Origin: Trichinella spiralis
Taxonomy: Eukaryota
DNA length: 53,731 nt
Direction: 5' to 3'
Assembly (NCBI RefSeq): GCF_000181795.1
Contig: NW_003526940.1
Coordinates: 2,455,346 to 2,509,076, forward strand
A program made the position numbers and the translations under genes. This document shows, piece by piece, positions 10,276 to 52,681 of this stretch (positions within the stretch are counted from its first letter, which is position 1; the number at the start of each line of letters is the position of its first letter). The notes under the pieces were generated by a model. It had not been told where the DNA came from. It did no database searches and worked only from the letters and a program-made list of their open reading frames with translations.

Positions 10276-10346
10276 GCGTCGGTGGTTCAGTGGTAGAATG
10301 CTCGCCTGCCACGCGGGCGACCCGGGTTCGATTCCCGGCCGACGCA
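10276..10346 (+). tRNA. tRNA-Gly (GCC)
   Basis: 71-nt cloverleaf: acceptor GCGTCGG/CCGACGC, A box TGGTTCAGTGG, anticodon GCC at 10308-10310, T loop GGTTCGATTCC, downstream T-run terminator. Confidence 0.97.
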
Positions 10347-33831: not shown

Positions 33832-36588
33832 ATGGCTGAGAACGATCACATTCAGAAAATTATTGATGAAGCCAGAAATTTGATGAATTTTGGCTTTTCT
33901 TTCAAGGTAAAAGTTCTCAGAAAAATAAATGTGGAGGTCTGCCGTTACAAAATTAGCAATGCTAAGCGAATTATACACATTTCACCTGATTACATTGATG
34001 ATAAGAAAGATTTTGTTATGTTCGATCTTGTTCGCGTTCTTATGGCGATGCATAATAAAGTTGTTTTATATGCAGAGAGACATTACAGATTAATCGATGT
34101 TGTGAAATTTGAAGACTTCAATGAAGAACTGCTTAAATTTTTATTTGAATATTGTTGTTTCTGCATGGGAAACGATGTGGTGAAACTTTACCCTGGTGTG
34201 GAGAGTTACTTTTGTCACAAACGTTTTGATGGTTTGTGGGATTTATCTACACCTGAGAAACGCTTGTTCTCAATACCGACACTGATTGATTACTTTCTTG
34301 CAATTCAACATTTGTACATTGTACGAGGAATGTTGTTTTCTCGTTTTGGTGGTAAAATGATTGCCATATTGCTGTTATTGAGATTTTGTTCAGCAGATGA
34401 AAAATATTCTAAAGCTCTTATTAACATGATGACTACTGCTTATGCAACAACGAAAGCAAATAATTTATTGTTGCTTATGAAAACTTTTAGAAATTTGAAA
34501 TCTCGGTACGCTAAATATGTGTTGGTTTTTTGTGGGAAATGTATGTCTGAAATTACGATACAGCGCAATGGTATTTTCCACATTTTGACTTGCTTTAATA
34601 ACAAGATCCTTTTGAATGAAAAAGATAAGTTACAATGGCAAAAACGTATGCCTGAATTAATTTGTAAATTTCCGAAAAAATTTAAAGATAAGCCGATGAA
34701 ATATTATTTGATCGTGTTTCGACAATGCGTTGGCATTTTGGAAATGCGCAATGCTGATAAATGGATTAAAAATGTATGTGCCGATATTCTTCGCAGTTTA
34801 TTTACTGAAAAGAGTCAACTACCAGTATCAGTATTAAATGAGTACATCAAGAACAGATATGTCGATCGAATTCGCTCAATTTCAGACAAGCAGCTTCATG
34901 ATGTTATTATGGACGAGAAAGCAGTGTTGTCATTTTTGAGTTTAATGGATGAATTAATGACAGTTGTGACTTTGGATGATCATTTTGACGAGGTTCTTCA
35001 AATAATAGTACCTGTATTGCTGTCAATGAATTGTGATGTGCGTAATTCAGTTACATACTGCGCACCATTAATTTCTGATATTATGACCAATTTATTTGAT
35101 ACTCAAAAGCCAGCTGCATTTGCCAAGAAATTGATGGCGTGGCTTTGCAGTCGAATTGAAGATTCGTTGCTATCATTACGTGCTAAGTTTGTAATTGGTC
35201 GTCGTAATGGTGTGCAAGCAGTGGTTGTTTCATATGACGAAGATGTGGAATTTATCAACAGATCTGTAGATAGTTTCTACGCTATTTTGAATTCGATACA
35301 GAATAAGAATAATATTTATTCTGCTGTTTTAGAAGAATGGTTGAAAATTATAATCACACATTCTTTTGCAGCGCAAGAAGAAAAGCAGCAGCAGCAATCC
35401 CAGTTGCCTTTCAGTTTCCTTTTGATTGAATCTCTTTGCAGCATACTCGATACGCATATTTCGCATTTTTATGATCTGTTTTCAACGCACGCAGTGGATT
35501 TTTTGAACGTGTTGCGCAAAATTCTCAATTGGTTACTTAAGCGCAGTCACAAAAGCACACCGCTTACAAACCAAGTGGCCGCTTTTTTGTTAAAATTTGT
35601 CGGCATTTTTCATCTTGAATATTTTTTGTCACAAAAAGATATTTTGGAAACGTTTCAATCTGTTATTCGGGTGGTGAAAATTTACTCTGAAAAATATCCA
35701 AATTCCAGTATTCGTGCAACTGCTGCAAAATTAGTTGTCAATGTGAATTGTAAAAAGGGACGTTTTGATGATATATTGCAAAAATGCCAAGAAGCTTATT
35801 CGAAATTGTCAGAAGAGGAACAATCGCGCAAAGTTGAAACATTTCAAACTGTGATGGAAGATTTAAATTCGACTGCTGTAGAAATCAAAGGACATGCGTT
35901 GATCATGCTGAGGCGATTGATTGAAAATGGAGATACGCATGCGATGATGGCTTTGGAAAAGAAATCTTTTTTCGAAACACTTTGCACAGAACTTCGGGAT
36001 AAAGATTCTTATGTTTATTTGTTGACTATCAAAGTTTTAGCCGAAGCGTGCAGAAAACGGAAAGCAAGTGTGTTTCCATTCCTTTTGCAGATGTTTGACG
36101 ATATGCAAAGCAAAGGTGACGTGGAAAATTGTTTGAAAATTGGAGAAGCAGTAGCTTCGGTGATACGCCGCTTGGGCGATGTGACTCCTCATTACGTTGA
36201 ACAAGTTTTGAACAGATTTTTGAAAATTTATTACACCGGTGAATGCAACGTGAAAGTGTCCTGCTTGTGCATTATAGCTGAGATCGTCAAATCTGCATCT
36301 TACAAAATAATGATGTTCAAAGTTGAATTGTTGTCGTTGATCGAATATAATCTCAAGATACAGAAATGGTCGGTTTTGCTTCCGGCTTCTGTTCACTTGC
36401 TGCATAATTTGTTTCTCGGTGCCGAAGGGAAGTTGCTTGAAATTTATGGTGACCGACTGCATTCTATTTACAGAGAGTTGAAACGAATGTACGAAAAGGA
36501 AATCGACAATGTTGAAATTGAAAAAGCCACGAGATTGCATATTCAGTTGTGTATAGAACAGCTTAACCGAGAGTTGAAAAAGTGCTGA
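33832..36588 (+). CDS. TANGO6: TANGO6/RTP1-family HEAT-repeat protein, single exon
   Basis: ~918-aa ORF with an RTP1 C-terminal-type motif (DLNSTAVEIKGHALIMLRRLI..LRDKDSYVYL..LKIGEA..RLGD..PHY). AATAAA lies ~30 nt after the stop. Confidence 0.8.
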   Translation: MAENDHIQKIIDEARNLMNFGFSFKVKVLRKINVEVCRYKISNAKRIIHISPDYIDDKKDFVMFDLVRVLMAMHNKVVLYAERHYRLIDVVKFEDFNEELLKFLFEYCCFCMGNDVVKLYPGVESYFCHKRFDGLWDLSTPEKRLFSIPTLIDYFLAIQHLYIVRGMLFSRFGGKMIAILLLLRFCSADEKYSKALINMMTTAYATTKANNLLLLMKTFRNLKSRYAKYVLVFCGKCMSEITIQRNGIFHILTCFNNKILLNEKDKLQWQKRMPELICKFPKKFKDKPMKYYLIVFRQCVGILEMRNADKWIKNVCADILRSLFTEKSQLPVSVLNEYIKNRYVDRIRSISDKQLHDVIMDEKAVLSFLSLMDELMTVVTLDDHFDEVLQIIVPVLLSMNCDVRNSVTYCAPLISDIMTNLFDTQKPAAFAKKLMAWLCSRIEDSLLSLRAKFVIGRRNGVQAVVVSYDEDVEFINRSVDSFYAILNSIQNKNNIYSAVLEEWLKIIITHSFAAQEEKQQQQSQLPFSFLLIESLCSILDTHISHFYDLFSTHAVDFLNVLRKILNWLLKRSHKSTPLTNQVAAFLLKFVGIFHLEYFLSQKDILETFQSVIRVVKIYSEKYPNSSIRATAAKLVVNVNCKKGRFDDILQKCQEAYSKLSEEEQSRKVETFQTVMEDLNSTAVEIKGHALIMLRRLIENGDTHAMMALEKKSFFETLCTELRDKDSYVYLLTIKVLAEACRKRKASVFPFLLQMFDDMQSKGDVENCLKIGEAVASVIRRLGDVTPHYVEQVLNRFLKIYYTGECNVKVSCLCIIAEIVKSASYKIMMFKVELLSLIEYNLKIQKWSVLLPASVHLLHNLFLGAEGKLLEIYGDRLHSIYRELKRMYEKEIDNVEIEKATRLHIQLCIEQLNRELKKC

Positions 36589-37653: not shown

Positions 37654-39750
37654 TTAAACAAGCAGAACAGCATTGATGCAACCATCATTTTCAGGGTTAT
37701 TGGTTACTTGAGCATATTTTCCCCAGACAACTTTACCACTTGTAGTGACAAGACCAAGTTCGCTGACGTTCACTTCTATTATGGTCCCTTTTGTAATGAC
37801 GCCTAGCTGAGTATACATCGTAGAAGATGGATTTTTTTTCACGCCGATTATTGGCAAATGAAACGTCGCTTGCAACTCAGGATGAGTGACATGAGCTTTA
37901 TTGAACCGAAGTGACTAAATAAAAAAAGAAACAGTTTTTGCAACATCACATAAATGCAATTAAAAAGATAAAATATAATGCGAACCATTGGACGAATAAA
38001 GCGTTCAAATTTTGGTGGTTTACGAGTAAAGCCTTCTCCAACGTAGCAAACCTTTGTCACCATGCGTTTCCATGCTTTCCCTTAATAGAATTGTTTAACT
38101 GACAAAATATAATCAAATAAAGACCATATATCAAATCACTTCTAGATTTTCCTGTACGAATCACTTTAAAAGTTTCTGCTTCACTCATAGCTTTCACTTT
38201 TGGCAGAGGTACAGCCCATTTTCCCTTAAATAACCACTTTAAAATGAAAGAAAATATAAGTGCCAACAAGCTTACAGCTTTCTCCTTTCTTTTTTGCTTT
38301 ATCATGTTACTCAGAACTTTTCCGCTAGTTTGTTGTTGACGATCAAGCAAATACACAGGAATAGCACCATCCGCTGACTTCTCTGGTTTTCTTGTGCCCT
38401 GTTGCTGTTTTTCTTCATGTGCCTTTATTCTGCAACATTAAACTTTTAACAAAATATACATAAATATTTAATTTAAATACATTATAAAACAAATTAGACA
38501 CATAAAAAGAAAGAAGCTTACTAATTACTTAACCAAAATATTATCAACAATTATCGTTCATATAAAAGTATCACATTACGACTTTTACATTACAAATTAA
38601 ACACAAAATCATACAACCATATAAGTAATAATTAAACTTTGGAAACACCTAACAAGCCTAAAAAATTAGTAAAATAAGAAAACAAACTAAAAAAGTTTCA
38701 AAACTTTGATAAATAAGATGAACGGATAACCGAAATTAAATTATAAATGTTACTTACTACAATATTTAAGATTCTTATGACAATTGAGGAAAAAATTCAA
38801 TAAAAATCAACTCACAATTTTCGCATTTGAACTTTCTCCGTATAGCGTTTTCTGTTGTATAATTTCGCCTTTATTCCGCGCAACGTTTTTGCTTTTTTAG
38901 CCAATACATGGCGATCTCGGCTAATCTTTTTCCGTCTTAAAATGCACAAATTTAAATTAAAGAATCTGCATTAATGCATATATTCATTAAAATAATTCTA
39001 AATCAGAAAACAATTTCCTAAAACTTTATTATAAAAGTAAAAAATATCATAATATTGACGAGAAACAAATTTATTACTCTCTTTCTTCATGATCGAAGCG
39101 ACGACCATAGCGTCTCCGATGAAGCTCTATATGCTCGTTCTGGGGCTACAAAATACAGATTGAATAACAAAAATCATTACATTTCAAATTTAATTAGAAC
39201 AGCAAAAATACATTAGTATAAACTTGCAAAAATTGCATAAATAATTAAATTAGTGAAATAACAAACAATATTTTGCGTTATGCATAATAAAATGTTATAA
39301 GAAAAGAAATGACATTTATTATCCAAAATAAGATGCTAAAAATTAAGACTACTAATATCACTATAAAGACAGTTATAAACAGTAATAAAATACTACACAA
39401 ATGTTTTTCATTACAAAAAAATAAATGTCGAAGACAAATTTCAAAGGGAAATTATGCGTCACGTTACTCTACTAAACGTGAAATTCATAAAGTTATAAGC
39501 ATTAAATAATTTTACTTTTAAAATTGGCTGACATACTAATTTTAAAAAATTAAATGCTAAACTTTTTAAAAACGGTTTTTTTCATTTAAATTAATGAGCA
39601 ATTTATTTCCAATTTGTGTATTCTATACTGTGTAATACTGCATTCAAAACATCTGATAATAAAATGTAACTAACCATTCAAATTTAAAATACTTTAAAAT
39701 ACAAAAATAATTTATTATTCATAAAAATAAAATAGAATGCAACATACCAT
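37654..39750 (-). CDS. NSA2: Ribosome biogenesis protein NSA2, multi-exon
   Basis: [89 protein letters not shown]. Confidence 0.97.
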
Positions 39751-40472
39751 TTATAAAATTTCTACATCATTTAATATTTGTACAGTATTCTTACCGTAAT
39801 TTGAAAAAATGTACAAACTGTTACAGTAAGAGAATATACAATTAATAATGCAGAATACGGTTTGTCTAATCATATTTTAATTATTGTAAAAAATATTTTG
39901 TTATTTTAATTTATATGCCTCACGCATTACAATAATTTATTGCTTAAAATTGCGATGATACTTGATAAGCGTGATGAAAAAGAATGATTATAGTTACCTT
40001 TTCCTTATGAATTAACTGCTAAGCTGACATATCCCTAGCTTTGAACAACAGTTCTCATTGTATAGTTGTATAATAACAATTATATAATTTATTAATGTGT
40101 ATCATGATTAAAAAATAATAAAATTTGCAGGAATGAAGCAGAATAAAGTTTTTTGGTTTTGCCATTGCTGATGATGAAAATACGTAATACTCAAAGATTA
40201 TTGAAAAAAATTATATGCACAGATTAGGATCAATGCTATGAAGCCATTATGTATCTGACGATACACATCATCAGTACAAGGATAACAGAAATAAACGTTT
40301 TCTTAACATTCACACTCCATTGTGCCAGTTGTAGTGGTTGTGAAAGTTTCATGTTATTCAGAAAGTACGTATTTTGCACTTCTGCTATAAAGTAAACAGA
40401 ATTAGACGCCGCTCGTTATTGCTAAGGTAACACATTTGACGCTTGAGTTTTGTGTTTACGGTAGTATTCTTC

Positions 40473-41108
40473 ATGGCTGAAGATGACAGAGAAATATTTC
40501 GCCTTTGGAAGATACGGCAGAATGCATTTCAAATGTGTCGTGATCGCGGTTTTCTGGTCACATCCTACGAATTAGACCAAAATTTTGAAGATTTTGTACG
40601 ACAGTATGGGGATCGACCAAGCGAAGGAAAACCCGCCAGATCGGATTTGAGTTTCCTTGTTTCGCACGAAGAGGACGCTGCTGAAAATCTATTTGTTTAT
40701 TTTGCTGATGAGAGAAAAGTTGGCATAAAGACCATAAAAAACGTCTGTTTACGTCTCCAGAGCGAAAATATGAGTAGAGCTATTATGATTGTTCAAGAAC
40801 CGATGACGGCCATAGCCCGACATTCAGTAGCGGATCTCTCCCCTAAATATAAGTTAGAACAATTTTTGGAGGCCGAACTGATGGTAAATATAATACGGCA
40901 CGAGCTTGTACCACGGCATGTCATCATGTCCAGTAAAGAAAAGGACGAACTGTTGGATAGGTATAAAATCAAAGAACATCAGCTGCCGAGGATCCAAAGC
41001 ACCGACCCAGTTGCTCGTTATTATGGGGTTGTTCGCGGACAGGTATTTAAAATAATTAGGCCATCAGAGACTGCTGGCTATTACGTGTCCTATCGTGTTG
41101 TTGTCTGA
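40473..41108 (+). CDS. POLR2E: RNA polymerase I/II/III shared subunit RPB5 (RPABC1), intronless
   Basis: RLWKIR..DRG, KVGIKTIK, HELVP.H, QLPRIQ..DPVARYYG..RGQV.KIIRPSETAG. The ORF is intact at 211 aa with no introns. Confidence 0.96.
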   Translation: MAEDDREIFRLWKIRQNAFQMCRDRGFLVTSYELDQNFEDFVRQYGDRPSEGKPARSDLSFLVSHEEDAAENLFVYFADERKVGIKTIKNVCLRLQSENMSRAIMIVQEPMTAIARHSVADLSPKYKLEQFLEAELMVNIIRHELVPRHVIMSSKEKDELLDRYKIKEHQLPRIQSTDPVARYYGVVRGQVFKIIRPSETAGYYVSYRVVV

Positions 41109-41113
41109 ATAAA

Positions 41114-41165
41114 TGCTAATCTATTGGGGTTTCCCCGCGTGAGTTCGATCTCATCCTCGTCGCCA
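41114..41165 (+). pseudogene. 3' half of mature-type tRNA-Ser(GCT) with encoded CCA (extended primer-binding site on the minus strand)
   Basis: T-GCT-AA anticodon-loop half, variable arm GGGG-TTT-CCCC, T arm GTGAG-TTCGAT-CTCAT with a 6-nt loop, acceptor strand CCTCGTC-G, then CCA. The 5' half is absent. Confidence 0.88.
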
Positions 41166-41166
41166 A

Positions 41167-41377
41167 TGTAACGTTTACGCTTTTTATCAACAAACCAATC
41201 TTTTTTTATTTAACGAAACAACGCTTTTATTCAGTTAGGAATAACTATATAAAGTGATAACACACACGGCAATATTAAACTCGCTAGCACATCGACGCCA
41301 ACGCCACTTTATGCAAAATTAGATCTCCTACTCTAGATTATTGATGTTTAGGTTGTTGAGGTCGTAATACCATTACA
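41167..41377 (-). mobile_element. Single LTR-like segment (Gypsy-type, tRNA-Ser primed)
   Basis: Bounded by TGTAA..TTACA. The minus strand has a TATA-like element then AATAAA, and ends ..GTTACA, 1 nt before TGGCGACGAGGATGAGAT (18-nt Ser PBS). No second LTR is visible. Confidence 0.65.
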
Positions 41378-41607
41378 ATACAACCTACTTCATTAGATTA
41401 CTCTATGTAGTAATGCAAAATAACTGTTGTTTTACCTTGAGATGCAAGCTAATTATCTTTTAATTGTGTTTTCATCAGTATTATAATATTTTTCATTTAA
41501 TTCTTTTTATTTTTTTTCTTATTCAAATAATTTTTAATTAATTGCGTTAATTCTGTAGCGTGCCGAGCTTTTCTTCCAACTGTTTCCTCCGTTTCTACCA
41601 GCTACAT

Positions 41608-41923
41608 TGTCGTGGAGCATTACGAGACACATACACAACGGAACTCGGCATAACTATTTATTCAATAGTAGAATAAAAATGAACAACACACCAGCGGGAG
41701 AGCGCTATAAACACACACACTGATAGTCTTATTGCTAAGGATGTAAGTCAAAACGGTCGTTAACTGATGGACATGGCCACATGACGGGACATATTAAGTG
41801 CTGGATGTTGACAGCAGGCGCGCCAGCTGTTGCATCTCGTGACTAATTGATGGGCGTCTGTTTATCTTATGATGCAGCGGTGTGTTGATGGCCGTTATCA
41901 GAGACCATCGTTCGTGCCAGGCA
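41608..41923 (-). mobile_element. Possible solo LTR
   Basis: GC-richer island bounded by TG..CA, with AATAAA near the minus-strand 3' end (..CCACGACA). No TSD found. Confidence 0.3.
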
Positions 41924-42684
41924 AACTTTTAAAAACAATTATCGAACGAGATAGTACGATGAGCTTGCTGGGCATTATAATTCGAATCATTAACTGATTT
42001 ATGTATTTTTAAGCATTTTATAAATTTTTAGTAATTTTTATTTCTTATTTCATCAGTTACAAAAGTATTTATTTATTTTTTTAAATGATAAATACAGAGT
42101 TATGGATGACATCTATAAATTGAACTTGACGATCATTAATATGCATGAATTTTACAAATATGGCGTAATATTGAGAGGAGAGGGCTTAACAAATTATAAA
42201 CTTGTTTTTGGATGTTGTTTTGTAATTGTGATGCTGTCGAGTAAAAGATTCTACTGCACCAGTTTTGTAGGATGACTTCCTTATCGTACAACTTTGCGGG
42301 TATCGCAGTATGGTTAAATAGTGAACTAATGGACGAAATCTGGTTATCTGGATAGACGCTTGATTAGCATAATCCGCAAAAATAAGCATAATCCACTGCT
42401 AGCCTGTAGATTAGATTTTCTGAGAATCAATAGTTTATTTAAATTTGATTCTCTACTATTTTGTATTTTTTAGCAGGTTTACTAGTTATTTAAAAAAACT
42501 TTTTAAAATTAATATATACAAGATATTTTGCGCTTCTGCTTTGAAGAATACGTTAAAAAACAGAAACGTAATATAAACTGAATAATGAACTTGATTATCT
42601 TTTAATTGAGATAAGGTAAAATTATAAACAAAGAGGAAGTAATCCTTAATAAGTGCAGTGGTGCTGTAGTTGGACAAAATTGAA

Positions 42685-43984
42685 ATGATTGGTTTTTATG
42701 AACTTGATTCTTTTTTAATTTGGGTTATTATTGCAATTCTTTGTATAATCACTGGGCGGTAATACTGAATTTTATTTTACATTGTTGAAGATTTTTTTAG
42801 CTTTATTTGTTTAGTTTCTATTTCAAAGGTTCTCAATTTTATGGCAAAGAAAAATGCAAAGGTAGGATTTATGTGGTTACTGGTGCGAATTCCGGTATTG
42901 GTAAAGAAATTGTTCGAGAACTGAACTATAGAGGTATTTGATAAAGAAAAGCTACTTGTATAACTAACTATATATGATCAATCATTATTTGAATGAGTAT
43001 TTTTGTTGCATTCCTTTGGTTTCATTTCAAAATTTAATGTTTTAATGTTCACATGTTGTGAATCTATCATCATCGTAGGTGTTTTTTTTTTGTAATTTAA
43101 GGTGCTGTGGTTTATATGGCTTGTCGCTCTATGGAAAAAGGATACAGTGCCATTGATGACCTGGTGAAATTGGGTTGTTCGGCGGATCGGCTTCACATTT
43201 TAGAATTAGATCAAAGCTCATTCGAATCAGTGAAAGCTTTTGTTGATAAGTTGAACAGTTTAACGAACAAACTGGATGGAATAGTATTAAATGCAGGAGT
43301 GATGTATGTACCGAGATATCAGCTGACAAAGGACGGGCATGAATACATTTGGCAGGTGAATTATTTAAGCACTGTTCTTTTGTGTGAAAGTTTGATTCCT
43401 TTGCTGGAAAAGTGCCGTGACGAGGGTCGAGTTGTGATACTTTCTTCAAATGCCCACTTGTGGATAAATGATTTGAATATTCACTCGATTGACCGCCGTA
43501 ATTATTGGAGTTCAGTTAAAGCTTATGGAAGAAGTAAACTGGCGCAAGTATATCTACTCAATACAGAAAATACAATGATAAAAATTTATTGATTGTACTT
43601 TTTAAGGTAATGTATACTGTTGCTCGTTCTGCGATGCTTCGACGTGAAGGCTATTTAGTAACGATCAACGCTTGCCATCCAGGAATTGTTAATACGCCAC
43701 TGTTTCGTCAGGTGCCAATTTTAGGCAGTTCTACTTTCCAATCTGTAATAGCACCATTTGCATGGTATTTTTTGAAAAATGCCAAAGATGGAGCCCAGAC
43801 ACCACTGTACTGTTTGCTGTCGAAAGAACTGGGCAGTGTTTCAGGAAAATATTTCTGCGAAATGAAACAAGCTGAAGTGAATCCGTTAGTGGAGAATTCT
43901 GAAGCACGCCAAGCACTCTTTGAATACAGTTTGGAAGCATGCAATTTACTCAAAGATGAAAAAGCAGTTTTGTCTGAAAATTGA
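42685..43984 (+). CDS. Short-chain dehydrogenase/reductase (retinol dehydrogenase 11-14-like), 4 exons
   Basis: N-terminal hydrophobic anchor, TGANSGIG Rossmann motif, LNAGVM, catalytic YGRSK, HPGIVNT, GAQTPLYC, SGKYF. Confidence 0.93.
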
Positions 43985-52294: not shown

Positions 52295-52681
52295 NNNNNN
52301 NNNNNNNNNNNNNNNNNNNNNNNNNNNNNNNNNNNNNNNNNNNNNNNNNNNNNNNNNNNNNNNNNNNNNNNNNNNNNNNNNNNNNNNNNNNNNNNNNNNN
52401 NNNNNNNNNNNNNNNNNNNNNNNNNNNNNNNNNNNNNNNNNNNNNNNNNNNNNNNNNNNNNNNNNNNNNNNNNNNNNNNNNNNNNNNNNNNNNNNNNNNN
52501 NNNNNNNNNNNNNNNNNNNNNNNNNNNNNNNNNNNNNNNNNNNNNNNNNNNNNNNNNNNNNNNNNNNNNNNNNNNNNNNNNNNNNNNNNNNNNNNNNNNN
52601 NNNNNNNNNNNNNNNNNNNNNNNNNNNNNNNNNNNNNNNNNNNNNNNNNNNNNNNNNNNNNNNNNNNNNNNNNNNNNNNNN
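52295..52681. other. Assembly gap (N run)
   Basis: Continuous Ns. Confidence 1.

Follow-up and report, generated by a model that had tools for sequence, protein, structure and literature searches.

How does a gene for an RNA polymerase subunit come to end, on the very base behind its polyadenylation signal, in a piece of a transfer RNA that itself runs into a long terminal repeat (LTR)? This arrangement is found in a stretch of 53,731 nt of Trichinella spiralis DNA, here called the window, whose features are collected in Table 1. A sequence-only reading had described the RPB5 gene in this window, hereafter W, as intronless, with a TGA that overlaps AATAAA, a tRNA fragment that begins at the next base and neither a 3′-UTR nor poly(A), and all of this holds base for base. 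Direct reading also bears out its statement that the minus strand is one continuous LTR, anti-tRNA and anti-mRNA tract with the polarity of a cDNA, which is the order expected from a single growing DNA strand.

Table 1. Features of the RPB5-tRNA-LTR locus and its surroundings (positions in the window)
Feature	Positions	Strand	Remarks
Transcribed stretch upstream of W	40096..40409		covered by a 655-nt RNA contig from X12 (2 differences, depth 186.7)
5′ leader of W still alike to the second copy (Alt)	40403..40472	+	minimum extent; may reach 40338-40357
RPB5, W copy	40473..41108	+	uninterrupted ORF, 211 aa, TGA included
AATAAA overlapping the W stop codon	41108..41113	+	last bases common to W and Alt
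Putative tRNA-Ser(GCU), positions 33-76, sense copy	41114..41165	+	CCA at 41163-41165; one T-loop A (A58/A59) missing
Primer-binding site, 16 nt + 1-nt spacer, as in ordinary element copies	41150..41166	-	two X13 contigs
Complete LTR, TGTAACG...CATTACA, 211 bp	41167..41377	- (sense)	multi-copy depth; loose ends of other copies
First exon of the SDR gene itself	42685..42759	+	tblastn of P0148 N-terminus; downstream edge of the insert's interval

Is W a working gene? The ORF, read directly, opens with the ATG at 40473 and closes with the TGA at 41106-41108, its product being encoded by 40473-41105. Both Rpb5 domains, each at full length, identify this product as RPB5/RPABC1: Rpb5_N (PF03871) with an E value of 1.2e-27 over profile positions 1-88 of 89 and Rpb5_C (PF01191) with an E value of 2.8e-33 over positions 1-73 of 73. 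RPB5/RPABC1 is the subunit common to RNA polymerases I, II and III. The W product is 98% identical to the RPABC1/RPB5 common to six Trichinella taxa, 91% to that of T. zimbabwensis and T. pseudospiralis, 63% to that of Trichuris and about 60% to that of other animals (over 99-100% of the length), and the ORF is colinear with RPB5 of other animals with no intron needed. Its first 190 residues agree exactly with the RPB5 portion of P0142, a gene model from T. spiralis. An estimate of dN/dS, as asked for in the sequence-only reading, gave roughly 0.15 or less between W and the second RPB5 copy of this genome (hereafter Alt), with 5 replacements and at least 10 synonymous changes among the differences listed; the value is a rough one, as the coding haplotypes are not separable and the contigs of runs X1 and X16 are mosaic at 40714-40878. 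Across seven taxa, W varies at 4 of 190 positions. Run X12, taken as RNA from its joints with GT..AG ends, covers the W ORF together with an upstream stretch (40096-40409), and X16, which like X18, X19 and X20 is only guessed to be RNA, holds both variants, W and Alt. The W/Alt differences and the near-invariance among the seven taxa suggest that W has been kept as a working gene.

The piece that follows the polyadenylation signal can be read in order as U33, the anticodon GCT, AA, the 3′ strand of the anticodon stem, a long variable arm (GGGG-TTT-CCCC), the T arm, the 3′ acceptor strand, the discriminator G at 41162, CCA and a single A at 41166. No tRNA was called at this fragment by ARAGORN, and an Rfam search of 40000-42500 gave no match at the tRNA piece; when the piece was searched alone, Rfam returned a weak, 5′-cut tRNA match of 10.7 bits (E 5.3, model positions 32-71). 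The firm evidence comes from contigs of X1 and X12 that match 41130-41162 and 41123-41162, respectively; no letter differs, and a single A is inserted behind 41147. These contigs continue as TATCCTTTTATG, with no CCA, and represent a genomic tRNA gene with the T loop TTCGAAT and a T-run; their likeness to the tRNA piece breaks off behind the discriminator base, after which they read TATCCTTTT. The match spans 40 nt and the 3′ part of the tRNA only, and it is this match, along with direct reading, that points to tRNA-Ser(GCU) as the identity of the fragment. Because CCA is present in the window and absent from the genomic tRNA gene, the fragment derives from a mature tRNA.

What follows the tRNA piece is an LTR whose signals lie on the minus strand (TATATA at 41251-41246, AATAAA at 41231-41226 and at 41210-41205). 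It belongs to a multi-copy element: summed depth over it is 175-640 vs about 10-100 in the flanks, and in each of the four runs compared, further copies break off at 41167 and 41377/41378. On the minus strand the LTR is followed by T and then by TGGCGACGAGGATGAG, that is, by a primer-binding site, and the sequence continues as anti-tRNA and anti-RPB5. Two contigs of X13 show how ordinary copies of the element are built, since they match the window from 41150 onwards (agreement 0.97) and are unlike it before that position. Because ordinary elements have only 41150-41166, the window copy reads 36 nt further into the tRNA, with 52 nt of tRNA against 16 nt. The piece has the anatomy of plus-strand strong-stop DNA, a complete LTR from the U3 edge plus the complement of the tRNA 3′ end with CCA. 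LTR sequence is present on the 3′ side of W alone, and no second LTR copy occurs in the 53.7-kb window.

The junction is not a product of assembly. The passage from stop codon to tRNA to LTR is bridged in 3 of the 3 DNA runs compared (X1, X13 and X14), which come from three Trichinella taxa; neither the X13 bridge (41084-41232, 4 differences) nor the X14 bridge (41057-41251, 5 differences) contains a gap. Both of these runs represent taxa other than that of the window, X14 with an intergenic divergence of about 4%. Since the junction recurs in independent runs from three organisms and at least two studies, an assembly artefact is ruled out. With 0 gaps in their bridging contigs, X13 and X14 share the loss of the T-loop A.

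Where did the RPB5 part come from? The sequence-only reading had called for a search for an intron-containing RPB5 parent; a second copy does exist, and it is intronless like W. Alt is seen in contigs of X1 (DNA) and X16, two runs from the organism of the window, that match the window to 41113 and then continue as GCTTTCCCAATTTT or GCTTTCCCAATTTTATG; this 3′ flank was found in 2 of the 4 runs compared, X12 and X19 having no contig that reaches 41113. The one difference of the Alt-type contig is placed at 41090, since the shared contig ends at 41089. Two variants of 40928-41057 lie side by side in X1 (depths 12.2 and 5.4) and in X16 (179.5 and 263.6), the second of them having the base for V180I that is known from the common protein of Trichinella. 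In T. nativa both RPB5 types are annotated on different contigs (13,795 and 10,746). W and Alt are two loci rather than alleles, because one species has both types on separate contigs and their summed depth is about twice that of the flanks (in X1, 12.2+5.4 and 10.3+8.9 vs 8-10; in X14, 128.8 vs 73-76). The 3′ flank of Alt has 0 matches in the 53.7-kb window at up to 3 mismatches, with only chance words of 18 letters or fewer, and metagenome scans gave 0 hits both for this flank and for a 30-mer of the shared RPB5 sequence.

The comparison of the two copies weakens one argument for an RNA intermediate. Alt is colinear with the W ORF in DNA contigs over 40403-41113; because it is intronless as well, the absence of introns from W, offered earlier as a sign of retroposition, is no evidence for an RNA intermediate. 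The supporting contrast with intron-dense neighbours stands in part: NSA2, SDR and COASY have introns, and the next gene upstream of the NSA2-W region, a TANGO6-like gene of 918 aa at 33832-36585, is one uninterrupted ORF. At the 5′ side, the likeness of W and Alt reaches beyond the ATG by 70 nt or more, its limit being bracketed between 40338 and 40403; the Alt-type contig of X1 spans about 40403-40509, and one contig each of X13 and X14 has its start within the bracket, at 40338 and 40357, respectively. A 5′-open model of T. pseudospiralis reads ..HTVVFF before MAED, compared with ..FTVVFF in the window. At the 3′ side, the likeness ends exactly at 41113|41114, the latter being the first tRNA base. 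Direct reading finds no A-run and no further 3′-UTR after 41113, and the flank of Alt behind the break point is not poly(A). Clean microhomology is lacking at the junction, where Alt continues with GCT and the window with T and then GCT; this match of 3 nt is offset by one base and may be due to chance. No word of 7 or more letters is shared between 40250-40440 and 41378-41420, where a target-site duplication was looked for.

Which of the two copies is the older one? Gene models place W in the NSA2-SDR interval of seven or more encapsulated taxa. Nine W models, drawn from seven taxa (T. spiralis, T. nelsoni, T6, T. nativa, T8, T. patagoniensis and T. britovi), were inspected and all nine carry Q16, Y32, R81 and K127, where Alt has H16, N32, K81 and R127. 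Of the four SDR(-COASY) models inspected from the non-encapsulated species T. pseudospiralis and T. papuae, which are gene models and not DNA, none contains RPB5 residues, an outcome in favour of the sequence-only reading, which had proposed to compare this interval in related species; the four models start with the first exon of the SDR gene itself. The single RPB5 of non-encapsulated species is located on contigs other than those of TANGO6 and SDR, for example in T. pseudospiralis on the contig of 196,561, with TANGO6 and SDR on that of 140,553. Adjacency of genes in the annotated genomes was judged by a shared contig; distance between accessions was discarded as a measure, genes that lie 4 kb apart in the window being 3 to 134 accessions apart. 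In the tree, W and Alt group together against the RPB5 of non-encapsulated species (support 80/82) and share at least 12 residues.

These data also bear on the possibility that the window locus is ancestral and Alt derived, the non-encapsulated species having moved or lost theirs. W has retained Q16 and V180 as found in the outgroup, where Alt has the derived H16 and I180 in most taxa, and Alt forms a clade (95/97) while W is not resolved as one. Nevertheless, W has derived residues of its own, Y32 and K127, its 3′ end is a reverse-transcription product, the Alt flank behind the break point is not poly(A), and the non-encapsulated models that were inspected place RPB5 away from this interval. 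Altogether, we consider an ancestral W highly improbable. W appears instead to be the derived copy, which came into being along with the tRNA-LTR piece, the outgroup side of this argument being based on gene models and contig assignment, and the most economical reading of the distribution is one duplication into the NSA2-SDR interval at the stem of the encapsulated clade.

A model of the origin of W can be proposed on this basis. W is likely to be one chimeric cDNA, which began as plus-strand strong-stop DNA, passed through the tRNA primer and ended on RPB5 mRNA. Strong-stop DNA started from the LTR (41377 to 41167, minus strand) would have read through the tRNA-Ser primer past the usual 16-nt site. 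Two irregularities in the tRNA copy would then coincide with predicted modified bases: i) one A was skipped at the m1A58 site and ii) synthesis stopped after U33, before a predicted m3C32, modification being the putative cause in both cases. The base m3C blocks reverse transcriptase. As for the presence of these bases, m3C32 is described as widespread in eukaryotic tRNA-Ser and tRNA-Thr (PMC8373065) and m1A58 as a reverse-transcriptase stop for plus-strand strong-stop DNA (PMC8599865). The nascent strand would next have switched onto RPB5 mRNA just behind AAUAAA and copied it toward the 5′ end. The product presumably entered the NSA2-SDR interval by break repair rather than through integrase, because there is one LTR only and no target duplication, and it would have done so at the stem of the encapsulated clade. 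The retained AATAAA would now direct 3′ end formation within the tRNA-derived piece, and the stop codon and poly(A) signal retained at the landing point may explain why the copy could function. For the complete sequence of steps, namely that a single aberrant reverse-transcription product, with read-through of the primer, a skip at m1A58, a stall at m3C32 and a jump to RPB5, made a conserved and expressed gene at the base of the encapsulated clade, we would give an even chance.

From these sequences, a template switch looks the same as the end-joining of two cDNAs, and the switch is therefore our interpretation of the junction. The closest competitor holds that two fragments, an RPB5 cDNA or DNA cut 5 nt past the stop and a free strong-stop DNA with an over-long tRNA copy, were end-joined in one break with no switch at all. 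According to PMC11372161, LTR intermediates of yeast Ty1 are a hotspot of end-joining capture at breaks, and 40 of 56 yeast LTR inserts contain nucleotides found only in cDNA; in the window, the lack of a target duplication and of clean microhomology at 41113|41114 both fit end-joining. Three observations count against it. By our own count, only about 1/8 of the random orders and orientations of two fragments would yield the colinear polarity seen here, in which the tRNA end meets the 3′ end of the mRNA; the tRNA copy reaches the predicted stop site in full, with no trimming of its end; and the reverse transcriptase of an LTR element has no primer on a free mRNA except by switching a nascent strand. 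We thus regard the joining of two fragments as unlikely.

Could the two parts have arrived one after the other? An RPB5 duplicate with a normal 3′ end, made through DNA or RNA, may have come first, with a later capture of strong-stop DNA and a deletion of the 3′-UTR. This is a weaker form of the alternative put forward in the sequence-only reading, in which strong-stop DNA was captured at a break just after an older intronless gene. It draws on the captures of LTR intermediates at breaks that are known from PMC11372161, and the order of events is unreadable from the three taxa with DNA evidence, all of which have both parts. On the other hand, an insertion and a deletion would be needed that together removed exactly everything beyond the last base shared by W and Alt, no remnant of the Alt 3′ flank is left anywhere in the window, and an orthologous W free of the tRNA-LTR piece, the case that would speak for a separate later insertion, was seen in 0 of the 3 taxa with DNA contigs. 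Two successive events are, in our opinion, a rather improbable course.

How is W transcribed? Its head-to-head position with NSA2 had suggested that it uses the promoter of that gene, an idea that finds no support here: the 5′ end of NSA2 (about 39160) is 1.3 kb from the W ATG, and the X12 RNA contigs leave 39162-40085 almost bare, cover resuming at 40096. The 655-nt contig that covers the upstream stretch then continues with letters found nowhere in the window. This stretch is possibly an acquired leader or promoter region of W. As regards the 3′ end of W transcripts, X16 has no contig over 41116-41175 and X12 has a depth of 0.7 over 41010-41163, stretches which carry no information on this point; a short dead end may also have been trimmed away during assembly. 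Downstream, X12 shows a joint with GT..AG ends from 42757 to 42814 at the first exon of SDR. W-type models, which came to light through a search with the adjacent SDR exon, are annotated in encapsulated Trichinella as RPB5-SDR or RPB5-SDR-COASY fusions through a cryptic donor behind 41052; since no joint from this donor to an SDR exon is present among the X12 joints listed, a fusion transcript is rejected and the models are regarded as annotation artefacts.

How does W relate to systems already described? Normal plus-strand strong-stop DNA and the piece in the window share the start at the U3 edge, the order U3-R-U5 and the copied 3′ end of the tRNA primer. The difference is that normal strong-stop DNA halts at m1A58, some 18 nt into the primer, whereas the piece in the window runs to position 33 and lacks one A at 58/59. 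Chimeric retrogenes driven by L1, in which U6 or another small RNA is joined to an mRNA, also combine a small structured RNA and an mRNA in one cDNA by template switch. They depend on an enzyme of another class and show target-primed insertion along with poly(A) and target duplications; W has none of these.

The nearest relative of W is LTR-mediated retroposition as presented in the main text of PMC5131818, which documents animal retrocopies that arose by template switching and are fused to LTR elements; chimeras of yeast Ty1 (Derr 1991, Schacherer 2004) are cited there. In both cases a copy of a host mRNA is joined to LTR-element sequence with cDNA polarity, and the retrocopies of that study are attributed to a template switch made by the reverse transcriptase of the element and can be transcribed and kept. 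The differences are equally clear. In the model of that text the retrocopy replaces internal element sequence, lies between two stretches of LTR-element sequence and undergoes integration as a pseudo-element, whereas W has one LTR; the junctions have a median of 6 bp of microsimilarity, whereas that of W has no clean microhomology and the locus bears no sign of integrase; and the bridge at W is a copy of the tRNA primer and not of element RNA, the word tRNA occurring 0 times in that main text. The captures of Ty1 intermediates at breaks in PMC11372161 resemble W in the LTR-sized intermediate, the nucleotides found only in cDNA and the lack of integrase hallmarks, but they are filler DNA at induced breaks with no host gene, whereas the piece at W joins a complete, conserved CDS. 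A product with one LTR in which the tRNA primer forms the bridge to a host mRNA thus lies outside the described models of LTR-mediated retroposition. In Trichinella, one retrogene has been claimed, that of thymidylate synthase (PMC4022200), and our searches of the literature found no report of an RPB5 duplicate.

What does the locus mean for the biology of Trichinella? As a route to new genes, it describes a product that kept its stop codon and poly(A) signal and so could work at once. Its junction records, at single-base resolution, a likely slip (58/59) and a likely stop (before 32) of reverse transcriptase on a modified tRNA in vivo. For genome annotation, the RPB5-SDR(-COASY) fusion models amount to a systematic error in at least seven taxa. 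As rpb-5 is a drug-target hit in an orthology-based screen (PMC13334664), we infer that this error may affect screens of that kind. For the genus, W and Alt form a hitherto unrecognised pair of paralogues for an essential subunit of the polymerases, and this pair is confined to the encapsulated clade. If the proposed origin is true, W would be a natural fossil of read-through on a tRNA primer and the first tRNA-bridged LTR retrogene, and the locus would provide a marker that defines the encapsulated clade, in which two forms of RPB5 differ at four fixed residues.

Public gene models from at least seven encapsulated Trichinella taxa join the RPB5 copy of the window to the downstream gene SDR, and often also to COASY, through a cryptic splice donor (CAG/GT behind 41052; window 41050-41054). 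Since SDR has a first exon of its own (see table), and since the RNA joints listed for X12, a sequencing run taken as RNA by its GT..AG joints, include 42757>42814 in SDR and none from 41052, these RPB5-SDR(-COASY) fusions look like annotation artefacts. As to the uninterrupted reading frame of RPB5, the TANGO6-like gene at 33832-36585 is likewise one 918-aa ORF without interruption and, therefore, intronless long genes are not unusual in these surroundings.

Upstream of RPB5, positions 40096-40409 are covered by an X12 RNA contig of 655 nt (depth 186.7, 2 differences), which continues for about 340 nt more that match nowhere in the window; the interval 39162-40085 has nearly no RNA cover in this run. 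The stretch may represent the acquired leader of this RPB5 copy; equally, the contig may reflect an insertion specific to the strain, or be chimeric. At 40449-40451, in the leader that directly precedes the start codon, the window has TTT; the second RPB5 locus elsewhere in the genome carries a G at 40450, and the 5′-open models of the window copy from T. britovi and T. nelsoni have C at the codon 40449-40451 (LSCV..). TTT is thus a minor change confined to the lineage of the window.

Features located in the window
Feature	Position	Remarks
tRNA-Gly(GCC) gene	10276-10346	Intact; sole tRNA called in the window
Further repeated element	41540-41960	Past the LTR, ahead of SDR; raised depth in all four runs
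First exon of SDR	42685-42759	Within the region 42685-42860
N run	52295-52681	387 N

In the repeated element that lies beyond the LTR, several different internal skips (41644>41799, 41785>41881, 41825>41882 and 41835>41881) together with loose ends point to internally deleted copies elsewhere in the genomes. With regard to the LTR itself, its TATA box and poly(A) signals (41205-41251, minus strand) are directed into the antisense strand of the neighbouring RPB5, and it is conceivable that the LTR drives antisense RNA across this gene, which would here be indistinguishable from transcripts of other LTR copies. For many genomic LTR copies the match ends at 41268 and the sequences then differ, as seen from loose ends in all four sequencing runs compared with the window. 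This common stop (41167-41268 against 41269-41377) suggests LTR subfamilies with U5-R in common and with different outer U3 regions.
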